64,000 bases of DNA from Candidatus Woesearchaeota archaeon (GTDB taxonomy: Archaea; Nanobdellota; Nanobdellia; Woesearchaeales; UBA10216). The notes beneath the pieces are model-generated. The model worked only from the letters and a program-made list of their open reading frames with translations. It did not search any database and was not told where the DNA came from. The number at the start of each line of letters is the position of its first letter. Position 1 is the first letter of the stretch. The position numbers and the translations under genes were made by a program. The DNA is taken from assembly GCA_018303115.1 (NCBI GenBank), contig JAGVYT010000001.1, positions 10,279 to 74,278 of the forward strand, read 5' to 3'. Shown here piece after piece: positions 12,521 through 51,988 of this stretch.

Positions 12521-12584
12521 AAGCACTAAGCCAGTATCTCCGAAAGCAGCTGTTCGCTGGCTGCGCCCAAGCTGCTTGCTTTGT

Positions 12585-12626
12585 TTAGCTTCTCTCCACT
12601 TAACTTGCGTAGGGGAGAGAAGCTAA
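12585..12626 (+). repeat. hairpin family member a (13-bp perfect stem TTAGCTTCTCTCC/GGAGAGAAGCTAA, loop ACTTAACTTGCGTAGG)
   Basis: Read directly. Lies between convergent gene ends. An additional 8-bp hairpin AAGCAGCT/AGCTGCTT at 12544-12577. Confidence 0.7.
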
Positions 12627-12737
12627 GTTAGGAGAACCTCAGCCAGCAAATGGGCACTTGAAAAGTTTACTTAACACAAGGGGAAAGAAGAAAAAGCAGA
12701 AAGAACAACAGTCATCACATAACTTCACTTTACCAAA

Positions 12738-17513: not shown

Positions 17514-17578
17514 CAAAAAGCGGAAACGCGACATGTTTTTAAAGATTTGCGTTGACTGGTTCCAAATCTGAACATATT

Positions 17579-17622
17579 CCACTTTCCTCACCCTAATCCA
17601 GTTAAGGGGGAGGAAAGTGAGG
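17579..17622 (+). repeat. hairpin family member e (stem CCACTTTCCTCACCC/GGGGGAGGAAAGTGAGG with one mismatch, loop TAATCCAGTTAA)
   Basis: Read directly, in divergent region between EamA gene (-) and pfkB kinase gene (+). Confidence 0.65.
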
Positions 17623-17717
17623 AAGCAGCAGGGCAAAGCAAATTGCATCGCAAGCTAACTTTTCAATAGCGCCAGAGAAGGATTAAATTTAAAAAGTAAC
17701 AGGGAATCGTTCTAAAC

Positions 17718-19815: not shown

Positions 19816-20159
19816 GTTAACCAATGCCAGAGGCAACCCGGAAGAGAATATAAAAGTTTTGCTATAGCGGAACATTCACAGTGACCATTACCAGTCAATT
19901 TCCTGCTTAACTTGGGACTCCCTGCTAAGCCAGACAAGGGTCTTCAGGGGTTGTCCTGAATCCTGTTCGTGTAGCTACTGCATACCCTCAAACCTGTTCT
20001 CCAAAACTTCTATGACCACTCTATGACTCACATACGGCAGAGCAGGAGGGAGGGAAGTAGAAAGGAAGCGATAAACATGCGAGAAAGCCCTTTTAGGACA
20101 GCGCCGGGTCTTCAGGCATTGTTGAAAGTCTTGCCTGCTTGCTTATTCGCCCTTTCTTT

Positions 20160-20200
20160 TTTTCCTTCTCCCCTTAACTTGTTAGAGGGGGGAAGGAAAA
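20160..20200 (+). repeat. hairpin family member b (stem TTTTCCTTCTCCCC/GGGGGGAAGGAAAA with one T-G, loop TTAACTTGTTAGA)
   Basis: Read directly, in the 430-bp divergent region upstream of the surface protein gene. Flanked by further imperfect pairing (TTATTCGCCC / GGGCAAATAA). Confidence 0.7.
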
Positions 20201-20274
20201 TTGGAGGAAGAAGCGACAGCAGCAAAACGGGCAAATAACGACTTTTTCAACAGAGCCCCGGGTCTTCAGCAACA

Positions 20275-25586: not shown

Positions 25587-25656
25587 GTGTTATGCTCAAT
25601 TCAGAATTCAGGTTTGAAGCGTTACATTTATATCTTTAAAGATTTTCAAGTTAAAT

Positions 25657-26043
25657 ATGAAACCAGAAGATTACTTCAGAAATGGCAAAGTGTATGTTTG
25701 GAAAGAAACTTTTGCCGTTGTGAAATCAAAGAAAACATATCTCAATGCTTTTGCTAATATCATTGATAAGAATGAAACAACTGTAATTATTGACCAATCC
25801 AAATTCAATGAGAAAGACGCAATTGAAATTGAAAGAGATTGGAAGATATTAACTTTTGATATGGTTTTACCATTTGGATTGGTAGGATTTATGGCAAAAG
25901 TTTCTCAAGCCCTCGCAGATGAAAAAATATCTATTTTTGCCATTTCTGCCTATTCAACAGACCATATTCTTGTGAAAGAAAAAGACGTAACAAAAGCAAT
26001 AAAGAAACTTGAAAATCTTGGTTGCATCGTTGAAAAGAAGTAA
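25657..26043 (+). CDS. ACT-domain-like small protein (function unknown)
   Basis: 128 aa, weak resemblance to ACT/RAM-type ligand-binding folds. Located in the AT-rich island. Confidence 0.3.
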   Translation: MKPEDYFRNGKVYVWKETFAVVKSKKTYLNAFANIIDKNETTVIIDQSKFNEKDAIEIERDWKILTFDMVLPFGLVGFMAKVSQALADEKISIFAISAYSTDHILVKEKDVTKAIKKLENLGCIVEKK

Positions 26044-26060
26044 CGCCCGAATTCTGAACT

Positions 26061-26098
26061 CGAAATTTTTGCCTTCGGCATCGTTGCACTAAATTTTA
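26061..26098 (+). repeat. island direct repeat A, copy 1 (CGAAATTTTTGCCTTCGGCATCGTTGCACTAAATTTTA)
   Basis: 38-nt exact match with 27730-27767. Contains UUCG-loop hairpin TGCC-TTCG-GCA. Confidence 0.8.
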
Positions 26099-26122
26099 TT
26101 CCTAACGGAGAGCATAACACGC

Positions 26123-26767
26123 ATGCGATACGTTAAGTTCAATAATTTCAGGGGCTTTACGATAATGGGGCGGTTTTCAATTCGAAATATTTTAACACCT
26201 ATTCAATATTTTAAAATTATGGATAGTAAGAATAAGCCAAAATACGAATTTACTAATAAAATTACCGGTTCTTCTCTTCCCACTGATACTTTTCTAGAAA
26301 AATTAAGAGAATTCCTAACCAATAATAGCTTTTCTTGTTCTCAGACAAAAGAAAAGACTGGAGAAGCAAAAACCACAGGAGTCGGAGTAACAATGGAAGG
26401 AGACTTGGGTGGAGGTATTGCTCATTCAGATATTATCACAAATAAATGGAATCCGTTTAATATTAAATGCGGTGGAAAAACATGTTCTTTCTTAGGTAGA
26501 TTTAAAGGAAATATTAAACTGACAGAAATGGCTAAATATAGTAAAAAGAAAAGAGATATACATTATGAATTAAAAGATTACAATTTAACAGGCAATATTG
26601 ATTTTTCACCATACGGTTTTTGGATGTTTATTTTATTCTGCGTAGGTATATACCTCAGTTTTAAATTTTCAACTGGTTTTTGGATTGGGAAAAAGAGTTT
26701 ATGGAAAGATGGATACCTTGGGCTTTTGGAGTTGCTTCTATACTATTCGCTTTTGTTGGTGGAATGA
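26123..26767 (+). CDS. hypothetical protein with C-terminal TM segment
   Basis: AT-rich ORF. C-terminal hydrophobic stretch. 3' end overlaps the next ORF by 88 nt in another frame (possible frameshift). Confidence 0.3.
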   Translation: MRYVKFNNFRGFTIMGRFSIRNILTPIQYFKIMDSKNKPKYEFTNKITGSSLPTDTFLEKLREFLTNNSFSCSQTKEKTGEAKTTGVGVTMEGDLGGGIAHSDIITNKWNPFNIKCGGKTCSFLGRFKGNIKLTEMAKYSKKKRDIHYELKDYNLTGNIDFSPYGFWMFILFCVGIYLSFKFSTGFWIGKKSLWKDGYLGLLELLLYYSLLLVE

Positions 26768-26868
26768 CTATAAGAGATATAGTTGGTCTGATAAAGGATA
26801 AGCATGAAAAATTATTAAAAGATGCTGTAAAAGAGATAGACAAAGAAACCAAACGTTCAACAAAATAA
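26680..26868 (+). CDS. small membrane protein (single TM)
   Basis: 62 aa with WIPWAFGVASILFAFVGG helix and a charged tail. May be the displaced C-terminus of the upstream ORF. Confidence 0.3.
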   Translation: MDWEKEFMERWIPWAFGVASILFAFVGGMTIRDIVGLIKDKHEKLLKDAVKEIDKETKRSTK

Positions 26869-26881
26869 TAAAACGACTGCT

Positions 26882-26906
26882 CACTAACTTTACAGTCCTT
26901 CGGACA
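26882..26906 (+). repeat. island repeat C, copy 1 (CACTAACTTTACAGTCCTTCGGACA; GTCC-TTCG-GAC tetraloop hairpin)
   Basis: Shares CAGTCCTTCGGACA with 27622-27635 and CTAACTTTACAG with 29783-29794. Confidence 0.65.
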
Positions 26907-26915
26907 TTTACAAAA

Positions 26916-27314
26916 TCAATCCATCTTAACCAATTCTTCCGTAGAATAAACCCGAATTGTATTTTGCTTTTCTTTCAAATCCCTATCATTGCTCCACAAA
27001 TTGCATCTTAATTTTAGGGCAAGAGCCAAATATGGGACATCTTTTGGGTCTGGAGAAATCTTTTCGGCTTTTTCGATGAAAGGCTCAATTTCTTTTTTTG
27101 GCATTAGCATAACATTTCGTTCAAACAAATCAAAAAGGTCGTTAAAATTTTCCTCATTCCTTTTGGTCTTTCCTTCCAGATAGTCCTTGTATTTTCTGAA
27201 TTCCTCAAAAATAAATTCAGGTGCATAGAGTTTATGCTTAAACAGAATGTCTGATGTTCCGCTTTCTTTCAGCAAAGCTGCAAAAAGAACATTTGAATCT
27301 ATCACTAAATCCAT
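26916..27314 (-). CDS. vapC: PIN-domain ribonuclease toxin (VapC-like)
   Basis: N-terminal VIDSNVLFAAL with conserved Asp, later acidic residues (PDPKDVPYLALAL, SNDRD). Confidence 0.7.
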   Translation of the reverse strand: MDLVIDSNVLFAALLKESGTSDILFKHKLYAPEFIFEEFRKYKDYLEGKTKRNEENFNDLFDLFERNVMLMPKKEIEPFIEKAEKISPDPKDVPYLALALKLRCNLWSNDRDLKEKQNTIRVYSTEELVKMD

Positions 27315-27316
27315 GA

Positions 27317-27556
27317 TTAAGCCTTTTTGTATCTTTTAGCTAGATTTTTGTTTAGTTCTCTTCCTAATCTTAATGCATCTTCCTCAGTCAGAGTACTATC
27401 GGACTTGAATTTTTTCAAAAATTCCAAATCCTTTATTCTTTGCATAAATGCTTGCCTGGCTATCTCAGACCAATTCATCTCTGGGAATGTTTCCATTTTA
27501 TGTTTCAGTTCTGATGGAACTGCTAAAGTCATAGTTGTCATGTTCTTTACCTCCAA
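27317..27556 (-). CDS. vapB: VapB-like antitoxin
   Basis: 79-aa ORF immediately upstream of the PIN gene on the same strand (2-nt gap). Confidence 0.5.
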   Translation of the reverse strand: MEVKNMTTMTLAVPSELKHKMETFPEMNWSEIARQAFMQRIKDLEFLKKFKSDSTLTEEDALRLGRELNKNLAKRYKKA

Positions 27557-27613
27557 TTATGTGTAAATATGTATAATATGTTCAAATATATAAAACTTAC
27601 TATTTCTGCCCCT

Positions 27614-27635
27614 CAACTTTTCAGTCCTTCGGACA
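27614..27635 (+). repeat. island repeat C, copy 2 (CAACTTTTCAGTCCTTCGGACA); followed by a third UUCG hairpin TCTGC-TTCG-GCAGA at ~27643-27656
   Basis: Read directly. Confidence 0.65.
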
Positions 27636-27729
27636 GCTACTCTGCTTCGCAGAAATTCATGCAATTCGGTGACAATCTTTAAAAAATAATAAAAACGGCT
27701 GTCCCGCCGTCCTAAAGTTCGCTTTAACC

Positions 27730-27767
27730 CGAAATTTTTGCCTTCGGCATCGTTGCACTAAATTTTA
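27730..27767 (+). repeat. island direct repeat A, copy 2
   Basis: Exact 38-nt repeat of 26061-26098. Confidence 0.8.
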
Positions 27768-27844
27768 GTCCCTGCAAGTATTCGGGAGAGATTAACAGCG
27801 ATCGCATACGTTCAACGCAATAAAATTTAAGTTTCCTAGAAAAC

Positions 27845-27879
27845 GGGAATTCTCAGAGGTCATTCGCAAACTTCAGTTA
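27845..27879 (+). repeat. island direct repeat B, copy 1 (GGGAATTCTCAGAGGTCATTCGCAAACTTCAGTTA)
   Basis: 35-nt exact match with 29616-29650. Confidence 0.8.
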
Positions 27880-28115
27880 AGTCCGATTTTTGCGGACAAC
27901 TCAAAACCCTCTTCAGTAAGCCTTGTTTTCAGGTCAGAGCATTACTTTCTTGCCCTTCCGCTTTCTGTCAATGCTTCTACAATGTCTACTACTGAGAACC
28001 ACCATCCATCATTAAACCAAGTTCTTCTGATTTTTTTGCCTTAAAATACTACTAGAGCATTATTTTGGTTAGTCATTTTATTACTTCAACTGCATTATTT
28101 CCATTCATAGCATTA

Positions 28116-28991
28116 TCAATCTGCCTCAGAAAATATTTGGCTAATGATTTCATTTTCTTTTTGCGTAAAAGGTATATCTGGATTGTCATGGAAATAAAGA
28201 GAACGATTAGAACGATTATTAATAAGGTGGGTGTATCCAACTATTAGGTTCACTCTTCTATAAACTTCTTTTTGCTCAAAGAATCCTTTTTCCCTTCTAT
28301 TCCCATCTATGTATCCAATTTGCCGGCCATCTTTTTCAATTTGGCAATAACCCTTTATAGCATTTCGAAGGCTAGACACATCAGCAAATAATGTATTTAT
28401 AATAAGAATATTCTTAAATCCTTTTCTCAATTGCCGTGTTTTTCCTTTTAATAAATCATACAGTCTATAACAATCACTATTTTGTGTTACCTCATTGACT
28501 ACAAAATGCCCGCTTAATTTATTTCCCGATTTAAATTCTTCTAACATTGCAGTAATCTTATCTGTTACATGTTTATCTTCATTTAATACAGCTACCTCTA
28601 CTATAATATCCTCTTGGTCTAGTTTTATCAAGAAATCAGGGTTTTTATCAAAACCATCTATTTTTGGCTGATAACAAACATAAGGAATATTAATCTTCTT
28701 TAAATAAGCCCAAACATCAATTTCTGATATTATTCCGTATACTTGCGCAACTCCTCCTTTAAGATATTCAAGTATATGTTTCTTATGCGGATTAATTTCA
28801 TCTGCACCCAAATCATTTAAGTTACTTTCTAAATGCTGTAACTTTGGTTCTCTGTGTTTTATCAACCAGATTAAAGCTGATGGTTTATTTTTTCCTGATT
28901 CTTCATTAATCCAATTATCAGTGATAAGACTTTTTAGTAAGGGTAAACTATTTACATTAATATTAATTGTTTGTTTATCAAATTGGTTCAT
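28116..28991 (-). CDS. hypothetical protein, co-transcribed downstream of the RelE/AbrB pair
   Basis: 291 aa, AT-rich, no recognisable motif. ATGA-type 4-nt overlap with the RelE gene. Confidence 0.4.
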   Translation of the reverse strand: MNQFDKQTININVNSLPLLKSLITDNWINEESGKNKPSALIWLIKHREPKLQHLESNLNDLGADEINPHKKHILEYLKGGVAQVYGIISEIDVWAYLKKINIPYVCYQPKIDGFDKNPDFLIKLDQEDIIVEVAVLNEDKHVTDKITAMLEEFKSGNKLSGHFVVNEVTQNSDCYRLYDLLKGKTRQLRKGFKNILIINTLFADVSSLRNAIKGYCQIEKDGRQIGYIDGNRREKGFFEQKEVYRRVNLIVGYTHLINNRSNRSLYFHDNPDIPFTQKENEIISQIFSEAD

Positions 28992-29233
28992 TTGTAAACA
29001 TCCTTTCGGTGATCAAAACAATTTATTATGATACTATCTTTTTCTAATCTGTAAATTATCCTATAAGGGGGAATTCTTATACTTCGATGCCCTTTTAGCT
29101 GATACTGCAATGGTTTTCCTGATTCTGGAAGTTCGCCCAGTTTCCTAATATTTTTAATGAGTTTCAATCTCGTAGGCTTATCTTTAATCTTTCTGAATTC
29201 TTTCTTAAATTCTTCAGAAAATATTATCTGCAT
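28988..29233 (-). CDS. RelE/ParE-family toxin
   Basis: YRIIYRLEKDSIIINCFDHRKDVY matches the RelE/ParE C-terminal signature. Confidence 0.75.
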   Translation of the reverse strand: MQIIFSEEFKKEFRKIKDKPTRLKLIKNIRKLGELPESGKPLQYQLKGHRSIRIPPYRIIYRLEKDSIIINCFDHRKDVYK

Positions 29234-29234
29234 T

Positions 29235-29519
29235 TTAAGCCATCAACAAATCGTCTATATCTTCATCACTCATTTTAGTATCTATTTTAACTACTCTGCC
29301 TTTCTTAATTTGTTCTTCGCTTCTCTTAATTTTATCTATTAATACCATATCTTCTCTTAAAGCTTCTTTTTTAACTTGCTTTAACATAATATTCCCACCT
29401 TCATTAAATACAATAAACTTAGTTGATGGCTTTATGCCTGCATCTTTCCTTATTTCAGATGGTATTACAATCTGCCCATTCTGAGATATCCTAGTCATAG
29501 CAACTTCCATTTTTATCAC
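29235..29519 (-). CDS. AbrB/MazE/SpoVT-type antitoxin
   Basis: ISQNGQIVIPSEIRK swapped-hairpin motif. 1-nt spacing to the RelE gene. Confidence 0.65.
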   Translation of the reverse strand: MIKMEVAMTRISQNGQIVIPSEIRKDAGIKPSTKFIVFNEGGNIMLKQVKKEALREDMVLIDKIKRSEEQIKKGRVVKIDTKMSDEDIDDLLMA

Positions 29520-29615
29520 CTACAATATATTTTAATATTAAAACATATTTTATATATAAACCTTTTGGTTTTTGGGCTCCAAATTCTATTGTTCCTGGGC
29601 AACCTCCGCTCACGA

Positions 29616-29650
29616 GGGAATTCTCAGAGGTCATTCGCAAACTTCAGTTA
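29616..29650 (+). repeat. island direct repeat B, copy 2
   Basis: Exact 35-nt repeat of 27845-27879. Confidence 0.8.
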
Positions 29651-29651
29651 T

Positions 29652-29757
29652 ATCAAGTTGAGTAAATAGAGGAACTTGATTGCATCCATTGTTGCTACCG
29701 GACTCAACTTGATTATTAGGAAGTTGACCATGAAGTTCCAATATTTCGTCAACTTCC
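29652..29757. repeat. cluster of inverted repeats built on a CAACTTGA-like core (ATCAAGTTGAG/CTCAACTTGAT 29652-62/29703-13; GGAAGTTGAC/GTCAACTTCC 29719-28/29748-57)
   Basis: Read directly. Lies at right edge of AT-rich island, upstream of the GT2 gene at 29843. Confidence 0.6.
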
Positions 29758-29842
29758 CATAAGTCCGATGTTATACCAGTCGCTAACTTTACAGCTCACG
29801 TATTCCAAAAATTTAAATACTCTCCCAAGACACCGCTGCAAG

Positions 29843-30772
29843 ATGGCAACCGAGCTCTCTGTTGTAATCCCGGCGTATAACGAACAGGATAACATCCAGC
29901 CCCTCACTCAGGAGCTCATAAGCGTTCTTAATTCATACGGAAAGCCTTACGAAATAATTTTTATTGACGACGGCAGCACTGATGCCACTGCCGAGAAAAT
30001 CGCACTCCTCCATGAAAAAAACAGGAACATCCGCCTAATACAGTTCAGGAAAAACTTCGGGCAAACCGCAGCCCTTGATGCAGGCTTTAAGAATGCCAAC
30101 GGAAAGATTATCATTCCGATGGATTCGGACCTGCAAAACGACCCTGCAGACATACCAAGGCTTCTTTCAGGGCTTAACAATTCAGATGCCGTTGTCGGAT
30201 GGCGCAAAGACAGAAAAGACGCATTGCCAAAACGCCTTTTTTCAAGGCTGGCGAACGCCATGCGAAAGGCGCTTACAGGCGAGCGCATACACGACTCAGG
30301 GTGCACGCTGAAAGCCATCCGGAAGGAAGCAGTGGAGGAGCTTGACCTTTACGGGGAAATGCACCGCTTCATCCCTGCACTGCTTATGTGGAAGGGCTTT
30401 AAGGTTACGGAAGCTGTTGTCAGGCACCGCCCGCGCCATTCAGGAAAAACAAAATACAACTTCAAGCGCCTGCTCAAGGGATTCCTGGACTTGCTTGTGG
30501 TAAAGTTCTGGATGCAATACTCAACCAGGCCGATACACCTCTTCGGGGGATTGGGCATGTTTTTCAGCCTGCTTGGCGTTATCATGGGGCTACACTTAAC
30601 ATTCCTTAAAATATTCAGGGGGGAGCAGCTGGCAAACAGGCCAATGCTTTTGCTGGCAGTGCTACTCGTTGTCCTTGGAACTCAGTTCGTTCTTTTCGGC
30701 TTTATAGCAGACATACTGATAAAAACGCACTACAAGGGAAAGCCGCCTTACTCAATCAAGAGAACGCTCTGA
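29843..30772 (+). CDS. GT2 polyprenol-phosphate hexose synthase (GtrB/DPM1/ArnC-like) with two C-terminal TM helices
   Basis: VVIPAYNEQDNI and the IFIDDGSTD (DxD-type) motif, C-terminal TM pair. TTTAAATA box at 29812-29819. Start at MATELS. Confidence 0.75.
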   Translation: MATELSVVIPAYNEQDNIQPLTQELISVLNSYGKPYEIIFIDDGSTDATAEKIALLHEKNRNIRLIQFRKNFGQTAALDAGFKNANGKIIIPMDSDLQNDPADIPRLLSGLNNSDAVVGWRKDRKDALPKRLFSRLANAMRKALTGERIHDSGCTLKAIRKEAVEELDLYGEMHRFIPALLMWKGFKVTEAVVRHRPRHSGKTKYNFKRLLKGFLDLLVVKFWMQYSTRPIHLFGGLGMFFSLLGVIMGLHLTFLKIFRGEQLANRPMLLLAVLLVVLGTQFVLFGFIADILIKTHYKGKPPYSIKRTL

Positions 30773-34735: not shown

Positions 34736-34830
34736 GGCGAGACAGAATATAAACGGTCAATATAAATATCTTACCATTATCCTACCTTATCCGATAAGTT
34801 TATATATTATTGGTGTATAACACTTTCCGG

Positions 34831-34925
34831 AGCTGCCACGATTCAGCTTAGCTGAATTTATTTTCTCCCCCTTAACCAGTTAGAGAGGGGGAAAATAAGC
34901 CTTGCGCAGCAAGGGCGTGGCAGCT
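34831..34925 (+). other. 95-nt four-helix (cloverleaf-like) structured element, probable 5' leader of the gene at 34943; contains hairpin family member c
   Basis: Outer stem AGCTGCCACG/CGTGGCAGCT (34831-40 / 34916-25) encloses three hairpins: ATTCAGC-TTA-GCTGAAT (34841-57), TTATTTTCTCCCCC-loop-GGGGGAAAATAA (34858-98), CCTTGC-GCA-GCAAGG (34901-15). TTTATATA box at ~34798-34805 places a transcription start near 34830. Confidence 0.45.
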
Positions 34926-34942
34926 AAAGGGGAGAAGCAATC

Positions 34943-35740
34943 ATGAAACGCAAAATCAGTGTAACTCTTGACGAGAACATCCTGAAGGCCGTAGACGGGA
35001 TGATAGACAACATAATCATAAGAAACCGCTCGCAGGCGCTTGAGTTTCTTGCGAAAAATGCCCTTGGCGAGAACAAGACAGCAGTGATTCTTAGCGGAGG
35101 GGAGGAGTCAAGGCTGGAAATATCCCGGGGCGAATACAGGATTACAGCCAGAATAAAAAGCTCCACAGTGATAGAGCGCTCAATCAAGAAACTGCGTGAG
35201 AACGGCTTCAAGGAGATTTATGTCATAGCGAGGAAAAACGTCCTGACCAAAGTTTTTGACGTTGTAAAAGACGGCAGCGATTACAGCGTCAAGGTCAACT
35301 ACGTAGAGGAAAAGGAAAGCAAGGGAAGCGCTGACTCGCTGAAGCTTGCAAAGGGAAAGATAAACAACGACTTTCTCGTAGTTTACGGGCACGTTCTTTT
35401 TGAGAAAATAAACCTGGAAGCTTTATGGGGCAAGCACATGAAGCAGAATTCAGTAGCCACCTTAATGCTTACCACAGCAGCAAACCCGAGCGAGAAAGGC
35501 ACGGTGGCAATGGAAGGGGACAAGATACTGGAGTTCAAGCAGAAGCCCAGGAAGACAGACGTTTACCTTGTTTTTTCGGCGATATTCGCGGCAAGCCCTG
35601 ACATTTTCAACTACACCGAAGGAAGCCTTGAATACGATGTTTTCCCGCTGCTTGCCAGCAGGGGCCTGCTGTCAGGCCACGTCTCTGCAGAAAAGGAACT
35701 GCACATACACAGCGCAGATGACGTGAGGAAAGTGAAATAG
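34943..35740 (+). CDS. ribbon-helix-helix (CopG-like) DNA-binding domain fused to a sugar-phosphate nucleotidyltransferase-like domain
   Basis: N-terminal KISVTLDENILKAVDGMIDN..NRSQALEFLAK RHH pattern, then AVILSGGEESRL nucleotidyltransferase-like G-loop. Confidence 0.5.
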   Translation: MKRKISVTLDENILKAVDGMIDNIIIRNRSQALEFLAKNALGENKTAVILSGGEESRLEISRGEYRITARIKSSTVIERSIKKLRENGFKEIYVIARKNVLTKVFDVVKDGSDYSVKVNYVEEKESKGSADSLKLAKGKINNDFLVVYGHVLFEKINLEALWGKHMKQNSVATLMLTTAANPSEKGTVAMEGDKILEFKQKPRKTDVYLVFSAIFAASPDIFNYTEGSLEYDVFPLLASRGLLSGHVSAEKELHIHSADDVRKVK

Positions 35741-37379: not shown

Positions 37380-37498
37380 TGATGAACGGCCATGGCCGCC
37401 CGGGTACACCCGATCCCATTTCGAACTCGGAAGTTAAGCGGGCGCACGTTCCTAAGTGTACTGCACATCGTGTGGGAAATTAGGATCGCTGTTCATCA
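37380..37498 (+). rRNA. rrf: 5S ribosomal RNA
   Basis: Terminal helix TGATGAAC.../...GTTCATCA. Internal CCCGATCCCATTTCGAACTCGGAAGTTAAGC matches the universal 5S loop B/helix III core. ~119 nt. Not adjacent to 16S/23S in this window. Confidence 0.8.
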
Positions 37499-38551: not shown

Positions 38552-38676
38552 CGGGTAAAGTCAAGTTAAATGTGTTTTGTCTGCCTACTGTTATTTTCCC
38601 TCTCCTTGCCTAGTCGAGGAGAGGAGAAAATAAGCAGTGGGCTGGGAAAGTAACACCGGTTAGTTGACTTTACCCG
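38552..38676 (+). repeat. hairpin family member d embedded in a 125-nt nested inverted repeat (outer 13-bp stem CGGGTAAAGTCAA/TTGACTTTACCCG)
   Basis: Inner hairpin TTATTTTCCCTCTCC-TTGCCTAGTCGA-GGAGAGGAGAAAATAA at 38591-38633. A TATA-like CTATAATCAAATAAAAAAC lies just upstream (~38524-38546), so the element may be transcribed as the leader of the gene at 38704. Confidence 0.6.
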
Positions 38677-41337: not shown

Positions 41338-41392
41338 AAGTCCGTTTCCGGACTAGTTTCCGGACTAAGTCCGGACCGAACCCGGACTAAAG
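41338..41392. repeat. second copy of the CCGGAC iteron-like array, filling the convergent intergenic space
   Basis: aagtccgtttccggac|tagtttccggac|taagtccggac|cgaacccggac. Shares a 15-nt exact block and unit order with the copy at 41018. Confidence 0.7.
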
Positions 41393-41902
41393 CTTTTTGA
41401 TGCGGTTAGCAAGCTTTTTGATGTCTGTTTCCTTAACTTTTGTCGCATCAAATTTGATTATGCGATGAGCTTTTTCTGTTGTCTCAACCAAGATAACATC
41501 AAATATTTCAGCATCAAGGTTTTCCCTTACCTTGGCCCTGCCATAGCCCCTTTTGGTGAGCCTGCGCTTAAGCTCCGGGATACTGCAGCTCAGCACAACA
41601 CAGGCAGATACCGCCTTATTAGGGAGAAAGTGAGAAAGGTGGGAATCCACAATAAGGCCCTTTTTGCCCTTTTTGGCAGCCGAATCCCTCACTTTCAGGA
41701 CTGCACGAGTGAAAAGTGAGGGGTCTACTATGGCGGTTTTACGCCTTTTATCGTATTTCTCAGCCAAATTGGCTTTTTTTATGAGCGCTGAGCCGGATAA
41801 GTACGCATAATCCAGAAAAAGTGAGAGTCTTTTTGCTATTACAGACTTGCCTGTGCCTGGAGTTCCTGTTACAACTATCACTTTTAGGCTGTTTTTGGCC
41901 AT
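41387..41902 (-). CDS. Fap7/adenylate kinase isoenzyme 6-like nucleoside-triphosphatase
   Basis: P-loop VTGTPGTGKS, LIVDSHLSHF, and VLSCSIPELKRRLTKRGY...KVRENLDAEIF resemble AK6/Fap7. Confidence 0.6.
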   Translation of the reverse strand: MAKNSLKVIVVTGTPGTGKSVIAKRLSLFLDYAYLSGSALIKKANLAEKYDKRRKTAIVDPSLFTRAVLKVRDSAAKKGKKGLIVDSHLSHFLPNKAVSACVVLSCSIPELKRRLTKRGYGRAKVRENLDAEIFDVILVETTEKAHRIIKFDATKVKETDIKKLANRIKKL

Positions 41903-47941: not shown

Positions 47942-48027
47942 GAAGCGGTATCACTTACTCTTTCGTCATCCCGCAACACAGAGCCAACCGCAAACTTTAA
48001 ATATCAGTTGATAACTATAGTTATCAA

Positions 48028-48555
48028 ATGATAACTGAAGATAACAATTTAAGGGCGGTAAGGCTTTTTTTTGAAAGCCCTGAAAAGAAGTTCCACATAA
48101 GGCAGATAGCCAGGCTCACGGGCATGTCCAGCACAGGCGTAATTAAAATAGTAAAGAGGCTAAAAAAATGCGGTTTGTTGAAATCAAAGAAGGAACGGAT
48201 GGTTGAAGAGGTTGAAGCAGACTTTGAAGGAAGGTTTCTGCAGCTGAAAAGGGCTTACAACCTTCTTTCTGTTTACGATTGCGGCTTAGTGAAGATGCTG
48301 AGGGATTTCTATGAAGAACCGCAGTCAATCGTGCTTTTCGGCAGCTATGGGGAAGGGACAGACACCTCAAAAAGCGATATAGATATAGCGGTTGTAACAA
48401 AAAAAAATGAACTTCCAAACGTGGATAAATTTGAAAAAAAACTCCGCAGAAAGATAAAGCTCATGGCCGTATCTCTGGAAAAGTCCACGCCGGAATTTAA
48501 AAATTCTCTCAGCAACGGGATTGTCCTGAGCGGATATTTGGAAGCGATAAAATGA
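48028..48555 (+). CDS. wHTH + minimal nucleotidyltransferase (MNT) protein, antitoxin-like
   Basis: N-terminal HTH (IARLTGMSSTGVIKIVKRL), then LFGSYGEGTDTSKSDIDIAV (GS...DxD of minimal nucleotidyltransferases). Confidence 0.65.
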   Translation: MITEDNNLRAVRLFFESPEKKFHIRQIARLTGMSSTGVIKIVKRLKKCGLLKSKKERMVEEVEADFEGRFLQLKRAYNLLSVYDCGLVKMLRDFYEEPQSIVLFGSYGEGTDTSKSDIDIAVVTKKNELPNVDKFEKKLRRKIKLMAVSLEKSTPEFKNSLSNGIVLSGYLEAIK

Positions 48556-51571: not shown

Positions 51572-51718
51572 TCACTCAAAAATCTCACGTAAAACAGACT
51601 TCCTTACATCCATGCTGAAATTGCAGTAAACACAGGCCTTGCGCTTGCCGATAACGCTTGAGTTAGTCTGGTATTTCATCCGGTTGCCGCATCGCTGGCA
51701 CTTAAGGAGGAACATCAT
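51572..51718 (-). CDS. 48-aa zinc-ribbon small protein (unannotated in ORF track)
   Basis: MMFLLKCQRCGNRMKYQTNSSVIGKRKACVYCNFSMDVRKSVLREIFE has two CxxC pairs ~18 aa apart. Below the 60-aa ORF cutoff. Confidence 0.4.
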   Translation of the reverse strand: MMFLLKCQRCGNRMKYQTNSSVIGKRKACVYCNFSMDVRKSVLREIFE

Positions 51719-51788
51719 GGAAAGAACACTGGGCGCATGGGTTTTTAATTTTAATTAAAAACTGGCATGCAGATATCCTGGGCTTGCT

Positions 51789-51830
51789 CAAATTTCTCCA
51801 CCCTTGCCTTGGCGTTGGTGGAGAAATTTG
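51789..51830 (+). repeat. hairpin family member f (14-bp perfect stem CAAATTTCTCCACC/GGTGGAGAAATTTG, loop CTTGCCTTGGCGTT)
   Basis: Read directly, in the 500-bp divergent region between gyrA and the gene at 51989. Confidence 0.7.
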
Positions 51831-51988
51831 GTATTGGACAATGGGCAGGATACAGGAATAGCCAAACAGCAAAGGGTTACTAAGCCTAAAAAACACAGGC
51901 ACAGAAGGCAGGCTTCTGCATTAAGCAATAGTGGTATATATTCTATATACAACAGGTTTAAATAGCAGGGTTTACAGTTTCTACTCTC

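Follow-up and report, generated by a model that had tools for sequence, protein, structure and literature searches.

A four-helix junction in front of an RHH-nucleotidyltransferase gene of a Woesearchaeota archaeon as a copy of a dispersed palindromic repeat family

A four-way junction was found at positions 34831–34925 of a 64,000-nt stretch of DNA from Candidatus Woesearchaeota archaeon (contig JAGVYT010000001.1, positions 10279–74278; hereafter, the window). This palindromic repeat, designated m4, occupies the stretch between the conserved TATA box and the ATG codon of a gene encoding a putative RHH-nucleotidyltransferase (gene position 34943–35740, + strand). A reading of the window made from the sequence only had considered the junction to be a riboswitch-like or leader-like regulatory RNA, or a tRNA-like structure, of this gene. 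The data presented below suggest instead that m4 is a copy of a clade-restricted family of small palindromic intergenic repeats, similar to MITEs (miniature inverted-repeat transposable elements), REP sequences and Correia elements, and that it was inserted at the transcription start. We estimate the probability of this explanation at about 0.68. It relies on the dispersal of the family, on the gain, loss and inversion of the element at the orthologous site and on the compensatory maintenance of its hairpins.

Structure of the junction and its dispersed family

Both the reading of the sequence and its folding bore out a four-way junction with a perfect 10-bp closing stem and three hairpins. 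The minimum free energy (MFE) structure of m4 coincided with the centroid structure (−49.1 kcal/mol). Dinucleotide shuffles gave a mean of −27.1 ± 3.8 kcal/mol (z = −5.85), and none of the 200 shuffled sequences was as stable. The + strand begins with the 5' strand of the closing stem, AGCTGCCACG (34831–34840), and the side hairpin H1, ATTCAGC-TTA-GCTGAAT (34841–34857; 7 bp, loop TTA). They are followed by the core pyrimidine/purine hairpin TTATTTTCTCCCCCTTAACCAGTTAGAGAGGGGGAAAATAA (34858–34898) with the apical motif CCCTTAAC, a single G, the side hairpin H3, CCTTGC-GCA-GCAAGG (34900–34914; 6 bp, loop GCA), another G and the 3' strand of the closing stem, CGTGGCAGCT (34916–34925), which pairs perfectly with the 5' strand. 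The two strands of the closing stem are the counterparts of the left and right inverted repeats of the element, and the core hairpin is the module that defines the family. The arms measure 10, 7, 12+3 and 6 bp and the side loops 3 nt. The linkers had been given as 0–2 nt; the close spacing was confirmed, the measured values being 0–1 nt, with essentially no conserved unpaired nucleotides.

The segment 34830–34926 folded with z = −6.85, and the reverse strand of m4 gave −46.8 kcal/mol and z = −6.68. Since both strands fold nearly alike, the structure is a property of the DNA palindrome and not of one RNA strand. An identical m4 sequence was found on an independent metagenome contig (L012), where the adjacent gene is also 100% identical; therefore, m4 is not an assembly artefact. 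A tRNA or tmRNA identity was rejected, as ARAGORN found neither in the window and the dimensions of the arms are unlike those of tRNA; the tRNA-like structure proposed earlier was abandoned with it. At the gathering threshold, the Rfam scan of the window returned only 5S rRNA. Nothing credible was found over m4, where the best sub-threshold matches were snoRNA, asRNA (antisense RNA) and miRNA models with E ≥ 1, and the scan of related loci, at gathering and permissive thresholds, likewise gave no match to the element. A known RNA family was rejected as well, these scans having returned noise only.

In order to describe the relatives of m4, two covariance models were used, R1 for the core hairpin and R2 for the full junction. 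R1 revealed exactly six copies in the window, all with E ≤ 1e-7 (44.4 bits and E = 6e-9 for the core of m4), which agrees with the hairpin family recognized in the earlier reading. Ten more copies were found in 89 kb of five related genomes, namely L001 (three copies), L002 (one), L010, L011 and L021 (two each). Thus, 16 copies are known, at least ten of them from outside the window. R1 found no copies in ~110 kb of Woesearchaeota or Aenigmarchaeota sequences with an orthologue of ≤68% identity. A protein-led metagenome scan yielded nine loci and no new carrier; among them, L012 repeats the window sequence and L013 that of L002. R2 had no matches in 661 kb of viral contigs, and a BLASTN search with the element gave no match in phage and plasmid collections. 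Pattern scans of the viral contigs produced two matches to an 18-base apex pattern and 75 to a 16-base H1 pattern; none of these 77 loci fit the junction model. Two IMG/VR contigs, L024 (740–780) and L025 (6040–6100), contain a hairpin apex CCCCTTAAC-N-GTTAGGGG identical to the apical motif of the family, with ACGTGCCG just 5' of the apex, but these hairpins are devoid of the long pyrimidine/purine stems.

The copies are 90–142 nt long and all 16 are intergenic. Each contains a core of 12–20 bp with a pyrimidine arm and a purine arm, a CCTTA(A/C)C apical motif and outer inverted repeats around the core; a 'CAGC-A-rich-GGG' motif trails most of them. Inverted-repeat scans showed such hairpins with pyrimidine and purine arms at several places in the window, all of them enclosed by additional complementary stretches. 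The density of the copies in the window is ~94 per Mb.

Besides m4, the window contains five copies. Copy m1 (12554–12649, + strand) lies in a convergent 3' spacer and forms a four-way junction with the closing stem GCTGGCTG/CAGCCAGC (R1 45.7 bits, R2 33 bits). Copy m2 (17547–17648, polarity ambiguous, R1 43.5 bits) is located upstream of the TATA box that belongs to a gene for a PfkB kinase. Copies m3 (20116–20257, + strand; long-hairpin type) and m5 (38552–38676, + strand; 125 nt) are single extended hairpins with z = −5.8 and z = −10.6, respectively, and m5 fills the spacer of two back-to-back TATA boxes. Copy m6 (51776–51862, + strand) is located in the gyrA-divergent spacer, ~95 nt upstream of the TATA box of the next gene. 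Upstream of m6, at 51700–51762, a strong Shine–Dalgarno sequence AAGGAGG is followed by a 14-codon open reading frame (ORF; MERTLGAWVFNFN*), which ends in an AT-rich perfect hairpin GTTTTTAAT-TTTA-ATTAAAAAC; it could be a chance occurrence or a tiny leader peptide.

Eleven copies of the family occupy divergent spacers, three convergent and two tandem or intercistronic ones. The neighbouring genes are unrelated and encode a PfkB kinase, an fn3/TSP3 surface protein, the RHH-nucleotidyltransferase, GyrA, a formyltransferase and hypothetical proteins. Copies m3, m5, m6 and L001a are located upstream of the TATA boxes of leaderless genes and hence outside the predicted mRNAs; m1, L001b and L010a lie between convergent genes and L010b between cistrons. 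A position between a TATA box and a start codon is found only for m4, for its same-site counterparts in three other genomes and for L011a. Judging by these positions, most copies of the family cannot be 5' leaders.

The copies m4, L021o, L002o, L011a and m1 share one MFE topology, namely closing stem, short hairpin, core and short hairpin (z from −3.6 to −7.3). An RNAalifold consensus of the first four contains 24 pairs, nine of them with compensatory double changes, and R2 scored these four copies at 82–98 bits. The junction-type copies share GCTG...CAGC ends, and covariation is seen inside the stem (CCACG/CGTGG, CCGCG/CGCGG, ATTG/CAAT). H1 also occurs in L002, L011a and L021, in the latter on the other side of the core because the element is inverted, with compensatory changes at the column pairs 13/30 and 16/27. 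Across the family, the duplex energy of the two arms was −20.8 ± 2.9 kcal/mol within a copy versus −12.6 ± 3.5 kcal/mol between copies, the own partner arm ranked first in 10 of the 16 copies, and the 5' arms of different copies were only ~55% identical. Strong pairing within copies with such diverged arms means that the stems changed with compensation. A transcription-factor operator was rejected for this reason, as covariation of the arms, and not their convergence towards a consensus, was observed.

The G·U counts of the two strands were not significantly asymmetric; m3 and m5 favoured the + strand, but the overall difference was not significant. The pyrimidine-first arm was rejected as a strand marker, since the reverse complement of a pyrimidine/purine palindrome has the same property. 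Thus, the folding models give no evidence for one RNA strand as the selected molecule. This strand symmetry, together with the untranscribed positions of many copies, favours selection or homogenization at the level of DNA or single-stranded DNA, although transcribed copies may have a role at the RNA level.

Presence, absence and inversion at the orthologous site

The spacer between ugd and the RHH-nucleotidyltransferase gene was compared among related loci. It measures ~207–210 nt and contains an element, followed by an A-rich/GGG tail before the ATG codon, in the window, L001, L002 and L021 (protein identity to the window of 100%, 81%, 79% and 75%, respectively). In seven other loci, which belong to the same clade or lie just outside it and represent six distinct orthologues, the spacer measures 92–95 nt and has no element. 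These are L007/L008 (83% protein identity to the window), L009 (81%), L010 (77%), L011 (75%), L022 (75%) and L023 (68%). Note that these identities are from the pairwise matrix; in the homologue search, P0015 (the L011 protein) had an identity of 74% and P0008 (the L002 protein) one of 78%. All the element-free orthologues are leaderless: the same conserved TATA box is followed by 23–25 nt and the ATG codon. The insertion in the four carriers is ~112–115 nt long, and with an insertion of this size at this site, the element begins at the predicted transcription start. The four helices, whose conservation in the orthologous upstream regions had been named as a check on the leader RNA, are not kept in most orthologues.

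In the neighbor-joining protein tree, each carrier has a closer non-carrier; the window groups with L007, L001 with L009, and L021 with L010, L011 and L022 (91–93%). The element of L021 contains the closing stem, H1, core and H3 of m4, but is inverted relative to the gene, with H1 and H3 swapped. Its alignment to m4 scored 48.5 in the reversed and 27.5 in the forward orientation, and R2 gave 94 bits on the minus strand versus 69 bits on the plus strand. In L001, the same site is occupied by an element of a different, long-hairpin subtype, which is 54% identical to m4, no closer than unrelated copies. More generally, the positions of copies differ between otherwise syntenic loci, and insertion polymorphism, including presence, absence and a flip, was observed at the ugd/RHH-nucleotidyltransferase site itself. 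This pattern requires that the element was gained repeatedly, lost seamlessly or passed between lineages by allele exchange, or that several of these processes took place. Gain, loss and inversion at one site are not what a gene-specific riboswitch would show.

A possible trace of insertion was found at m3, on either side of which the 12-nt sequence CCGGGTCTTCAG stands as an exact direct repeat (20104–20115 and 20258–20269). The right copy of the repeat abuts TTCAG|CAA(A)CATTTAAATA, a promoter-proximal sequence that is found in its ancestral state in L010, L011 and L022, and the promoters of the relatives would fit a site before insertion. The repeat looks like a target-site duplication. The sequence GGGTCTTCAG occurs three times in the 429-nt spacer containing m3 (19938–19947, 20106–20115 and 20260–20269); two occurrences belong to the flanking repeat, and the third lies 170 nt upstream and may represent either a binding site or what is left of an earlier event. 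Outer inverted repeats are present in every copy of the family and are of at least two types (GCTG...CAGC and ...AAAGTC/GACTTT...), variable within a type.

Predicted leader and alternative explanations

The TATA box of the RHH-nucleotidyltransferase gene, TTTATATA, is located at 34799–34806 on the + strand, one base from the position given for it earlier (~34798–34805). At every orthologous locus, this box is conserved together with the 30 nt that precede it. In the window, 14 promoter-proximal genes have a TTTAWATA box (0–1 mismatch) that starts at −29 to −36 from the ATG codon, and no Shine–Dalgarno sequence. Based on this spacing and on that of the leaderless orthologues, the predicted transcription start of the gene is at ~34829–34832, i.e., at the first bases of the closing stem, as had been proposed. 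No second TATA box was found between m4 and the ATG codon at 34943. The junction ends 17 nt before this codon, and the intervening tail AAAGGGGAGAAGCAATC (34926–34942, + strand) holds a Shine–Dalgarno-like GGGGAG at 34929–34934, i.e., −14 to −9 from the ATG codon, in agreement with the earlier description. GGGGAG lies outside the folded structure, and the tail is missing from the leaderless orthologues. The encoded protein (265 aa) has hundreds of homologues and is an NTP_transferase; the match of its N-terminal part to the RHH domain is weak (E = 0.01, under the Pfam cut-off).

The divergent promoter of ugd (− strand) and the RHH-nucleotidyltransferase gene (+ strand), located at 34759–34806 (ATATAAATATCTTACCATTATCCTACCTTATCCGATAAGTTTATATA), varies hardly at all among the orthologous loci and can be made out even in L006 and in L005, an Aenigmarchaeota locus with 52% protein identity. 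Within its operator-like part (34767–34798), TTATCC is directly repeated, and the palindrome CTTATC-C-GATAAG immediately precedes the TATA box. This part is likely an autoregulatory operator for the RHH domain, and it appears more likely that the regulation of the gene runs through this conserved DNA operator than through the junction.

According to the proposed mechanism, the gene, which most relatives have in leaderless form, would have received m4 or its ancestor precisely at its transcription start. With the TATA box unaltered, transcription would now start at the closing stem and give a leader of ~112 nt, and the 5' end of the mRNA would be held in the 10-bp helix that closes a junction of approximately −49 kcal/mol. 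GGGGAG, 9–14 nt before the ATG codon and free of the fold, would now serve as a ribosome-binding site. Either orientation of the palindrome would leave the outer pair 5'-CCC...GGG-3' and hence a purine-rich tract on the gene side, and we infer that the flipped allele of L021 is viable because of this. The leader may plausibly affect mRNA stability or translation efficiency. The effect on the gene would be a by-product of the insertion, possibly exploited later, with the hairpins kept for the biology of the element itself as DNA or single-stranded DNA, the level at which hairpin-recognizing transposition or replication-linked processes would act.

Several observations weigh against such an inserted mobile element. 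The copies are only 54–74% identical, without near-identical pairs, i.e., the family is old and diverged and recent mobility is unsupported. The identity of m4 to the L021 element (74%) is close to that of the flanking genes (75%), which fits long vertical retention at the site. A systematic search revealed no flanking repeat of ≥9 nt in the right geometry for the other 15 of the 16 copies, and the Pfam scan of 60 window ORFs found no transposase, integrase or HUH nuclease. The outer repeats are not conserved in sequence across the copies, unlike the transposase-binding ends of classical MITEs. The compensatory changes in the stems and the conserved apical motif point to selection on the fold, unlike the decay of a purely selfish transposon. 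Finally, L011a is located in the sense orientation between a CTTATAAA TATA-like box and a small gene preceded by GGGGGGAG; it is a second gene with the junction-leader layout and leaves room for a leader function of the junction subtype.

The last observations can be read in favour of a functional structured module, domesticated or never mobile, and this is the alternative that survives best, being possible but unlikely. Here, a host protein would bind the core hairpin and its CCUUAAC loop, as RNA or single-stranded DNA, and junction copies at a transcription start would act as a leader cassette that shields the mRNA from 5'-to-3' exonuclease and switches the gene from leaderless to Shine–Dalgarno-dependent translation. 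The better pairing of arms within copies, the covariation of all four helices, the apical CTTA motif kept in about 14 of the 16 copies despite the divergence of the stems, the two unrelated genes with a junction between the TATA box and the Shine–Dalgarno-ATG region and the divergence of the element at the site to about the same extent as the gene are all consistent with this explanation. Against it, most copies are located outside the predicted transcripts, the L021 copy is inverted, the folding has no strand preference, most orthologues do well without the element, and the associated genes share no function. That the junction subtype is a real, perhaps protein-bound, leader module appears rather unlikely. 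More doubtful still is the proposal that the junction type is a mobile cassette which enters the melted start region of leaderless genes in either orientation, provides a protective 5' junction and a Shine–Dalgarno site, makes these genes dependent on the latter and has its core hairpin and CCUUAAC loop bound by a DPANN protein as RNA or single-stranded DNA.

An element acting as DNA is improbable. It would be a protein-binding or cruciform site near promoters with an activating, insulating or nucleoid-structuring role, like gyrase- or IHF-bound REP/BIME, or a bidirectional oligo-T terminator. The equivalence of both strands agrees with such a role, as does the location of many copies (m2, m3, m5 and L001a), which end 10–30 nt upstream of a TATA box. 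In half the copies, the base of the core has runs of T4–T7 on both strands; but these runs are missing in the other half and, where present, stand before the hairpin and not after it, and divergent spacers need no terminator. Moreover, the stems differ between copies with compensation, unlike operator half-sites in evolution, and no candidate binding protein was identified. Origin-recognition boxes were rejected too, because the loci are too numerous and there is no AT-rich unwinding element.

A dedicated riboswitch-like, leader-like or tRNA-like RNA sensing a sugar nucleotide or a similar ligand is highly improbable and largely refuted: a strong fold starting at the predicted transcription start and an element kept at the site in four lineages speak for it, but six distinct orthologues (seven loci) have none, the same-site element of L021 is inverted, that of L001 belongs to another subtype at the identity level of unrelated copies (54% to m4), paralogous copies adjoin unrelated genes, linkers of 0–1 nt leave no conserved unpaired core, no tRNA or Rfam match was found, and the strongly conserved putative DNA operator by the TATA box offers a simpler regulatory route. 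Of the earlier leader hypothesis, the position between the TATA box and the ATG codon stands, and the gene-specific sensing of a ligand does not, given the unrelated neighbours, the orthologues without an element and the L021 inversion; m4 does not appear to be a ligand sensor.

Thus, insertion of a palindromic repeat remains the preferred explanation. It removes a false riboswitch or tRNA-like candidate and describes a palindromic repeat family of an uncultured DPANN lineage, for which coordinates and two covariance models are available. The site also represents a natural experiment, in which one promoter is predicted to produce a leaderless mRNA in most relatives, a 112-nt structured leader with a Shine–Dalgarno sequence in a few and a flipped version in one. 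If the leader alters expression, it would show how small repeats rewire the mode of translation initiation in archaea. The compensatory upkeep of the hairpins, like the conservation of the loop, is a hint of a hairpin-recognizing protein.

Further features were noted in the window and its relatives. The 5S rRNA gene (37382–37497, + strand, 79 bits) stands alone and is not linked to 16S/23S within the window; its counterparts (L001, 12429–12542; L011, 12660–12775; L021, 5561–5676) are syntenic, a few kb downstream of the RHH-nucleotidyltransferase gene. A segment of ~130 nt, ~85–90% conserved in different gene contexts, adjoins the copies L001a and L021b (L001, 4620–4745; L021, 4660–4790). C/D-box-like motifs (CTGATGC ... 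TCTGAGC) are found in this segment along with a hairpin of 41 nt, TCAAGAACTGC-N19-GCAGTTCTTGA; the segment has no Rfam match, is absent from the window and may be an unannotated small RNA. The low-GC island at ~25600–30000 (33–35% versus ~47% elsewhere) is probably acquired DNA; it carries genes for PIN_2 toxin-like (26916–27314, − strand) and MazE/AbrB-type antitoxin-like (29235–29510, − strand) proteins and ORFs without a Pfam match. A conserved perfect 10-bp hairpin CCCTCACTTT-N17-AAAGTGAGGG occupies syntenic positions in the window (41686–41722), L001 (16790–16826), L002 (16690–16730) and L003 (12472–12512); in the window, it lies inside an AAA_18 kinase-like ORF (41387–41902, − strand) and may reflect coding conservation only. 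At 47995–48047, nested palindromes rich in GATAAC/GTTATC (TTGATAACTATAGTTATCAA...) overlap both a TTTAAATA box and the point (48028) where a Polbeta/NTP_transf_2 (MNT-type) gene starts, and this arrangement looks like the operator of a toxin–antitoxin-type pair.

Comparison with known repeat elements

The family resembles MITEs in being small, non-coding, intergenic, bounded by inverted repeats and present in many copies in one clade, with six copies in 64 kb and ten in related loci; one window copy, m3, is accompanied by a direct repeat. Its density of ~94 per Mb is comparable to that of a Woesearchaeal genome for which a census of 2024 (PMC11602168) reports ~105 MITEs per Mb, one of the highest values among archaea. 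It differs from MITEs in that a partner transposase or matching insertion sequence ends were not found, the copies are old, the stems compensate instead of decaying, and the 12-bp duplication is long. Strict membership among the MITEs is unproven, as there are no shared terminal repeats, one duplication only and no transposase in the window scan.

With riboswitches and leader RNAs, m4 shares a stable multi-helix junction in the 5' untranslated region (UTR) just upstream of a ribosome-binding site. The family lacks the conserved junction core, coherent regulon, fixed orientation and Rfam match of riboswitches, and the element is missing from most orthologues. Integrons are known in archaea, but an attC site was rejected, since AAC/GTT is located at the apex of the hairpin and not at the outer ends and the neighbours are syntenic housekeeping genes.

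REP/BIME elements and the IS200/IS605-derived palindrome-associated elements (PATEs) keep structure over sequence, have hairpins recognizable as single-stranded DNA and usually produce no target duplication. The family appears similar to them in the fold kept over sequence, hairpins that could be recognized as single-stranded DNA, mostly absent target duplication, seamless-looking loss and location at 3', intercistronic and promoter sites. Differences are the absence of a conserved GTAG-type 5' tetranucleotide in the alignments and a structure longer and more complex than one REP hairpin; no RAYT or TnpA (Y1 HUH) gene turned up in the Pfam scans of the window.

Correia elements are bounded by 26-bp terminal repeats that are conserved, duplicate a TA target, contain an IHF site and are processed by RNase III. 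To our knowledge, classical RNase III is generally absent from archaea. The family described here has variable terminal repeats, an archaeal host and a junction or extended hairpin around a pyrimidine/purine core, and 15 of its 16 copies are without a duplication. With neither a TA duplication nor a conserved long terminal repeat, it was not assigned to the Correia elements. Nevertheless, the Correia elements (CREE/NEMIS) of Neisseria are also non-coding, ~100–150 bp long, bounded by inverted repeats and present in many copies (PMC2649163 and PMC2229807, in part). They are often located between a promoter and a gene and co-transcribed with it, their 5' UTR hairpin alters expression, and they are polymorphic among strains (likewise, in part, PMC2649163 and PMC2229807). 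The likeness of m4 to the Correia elements appears to be one of function and not of membership.

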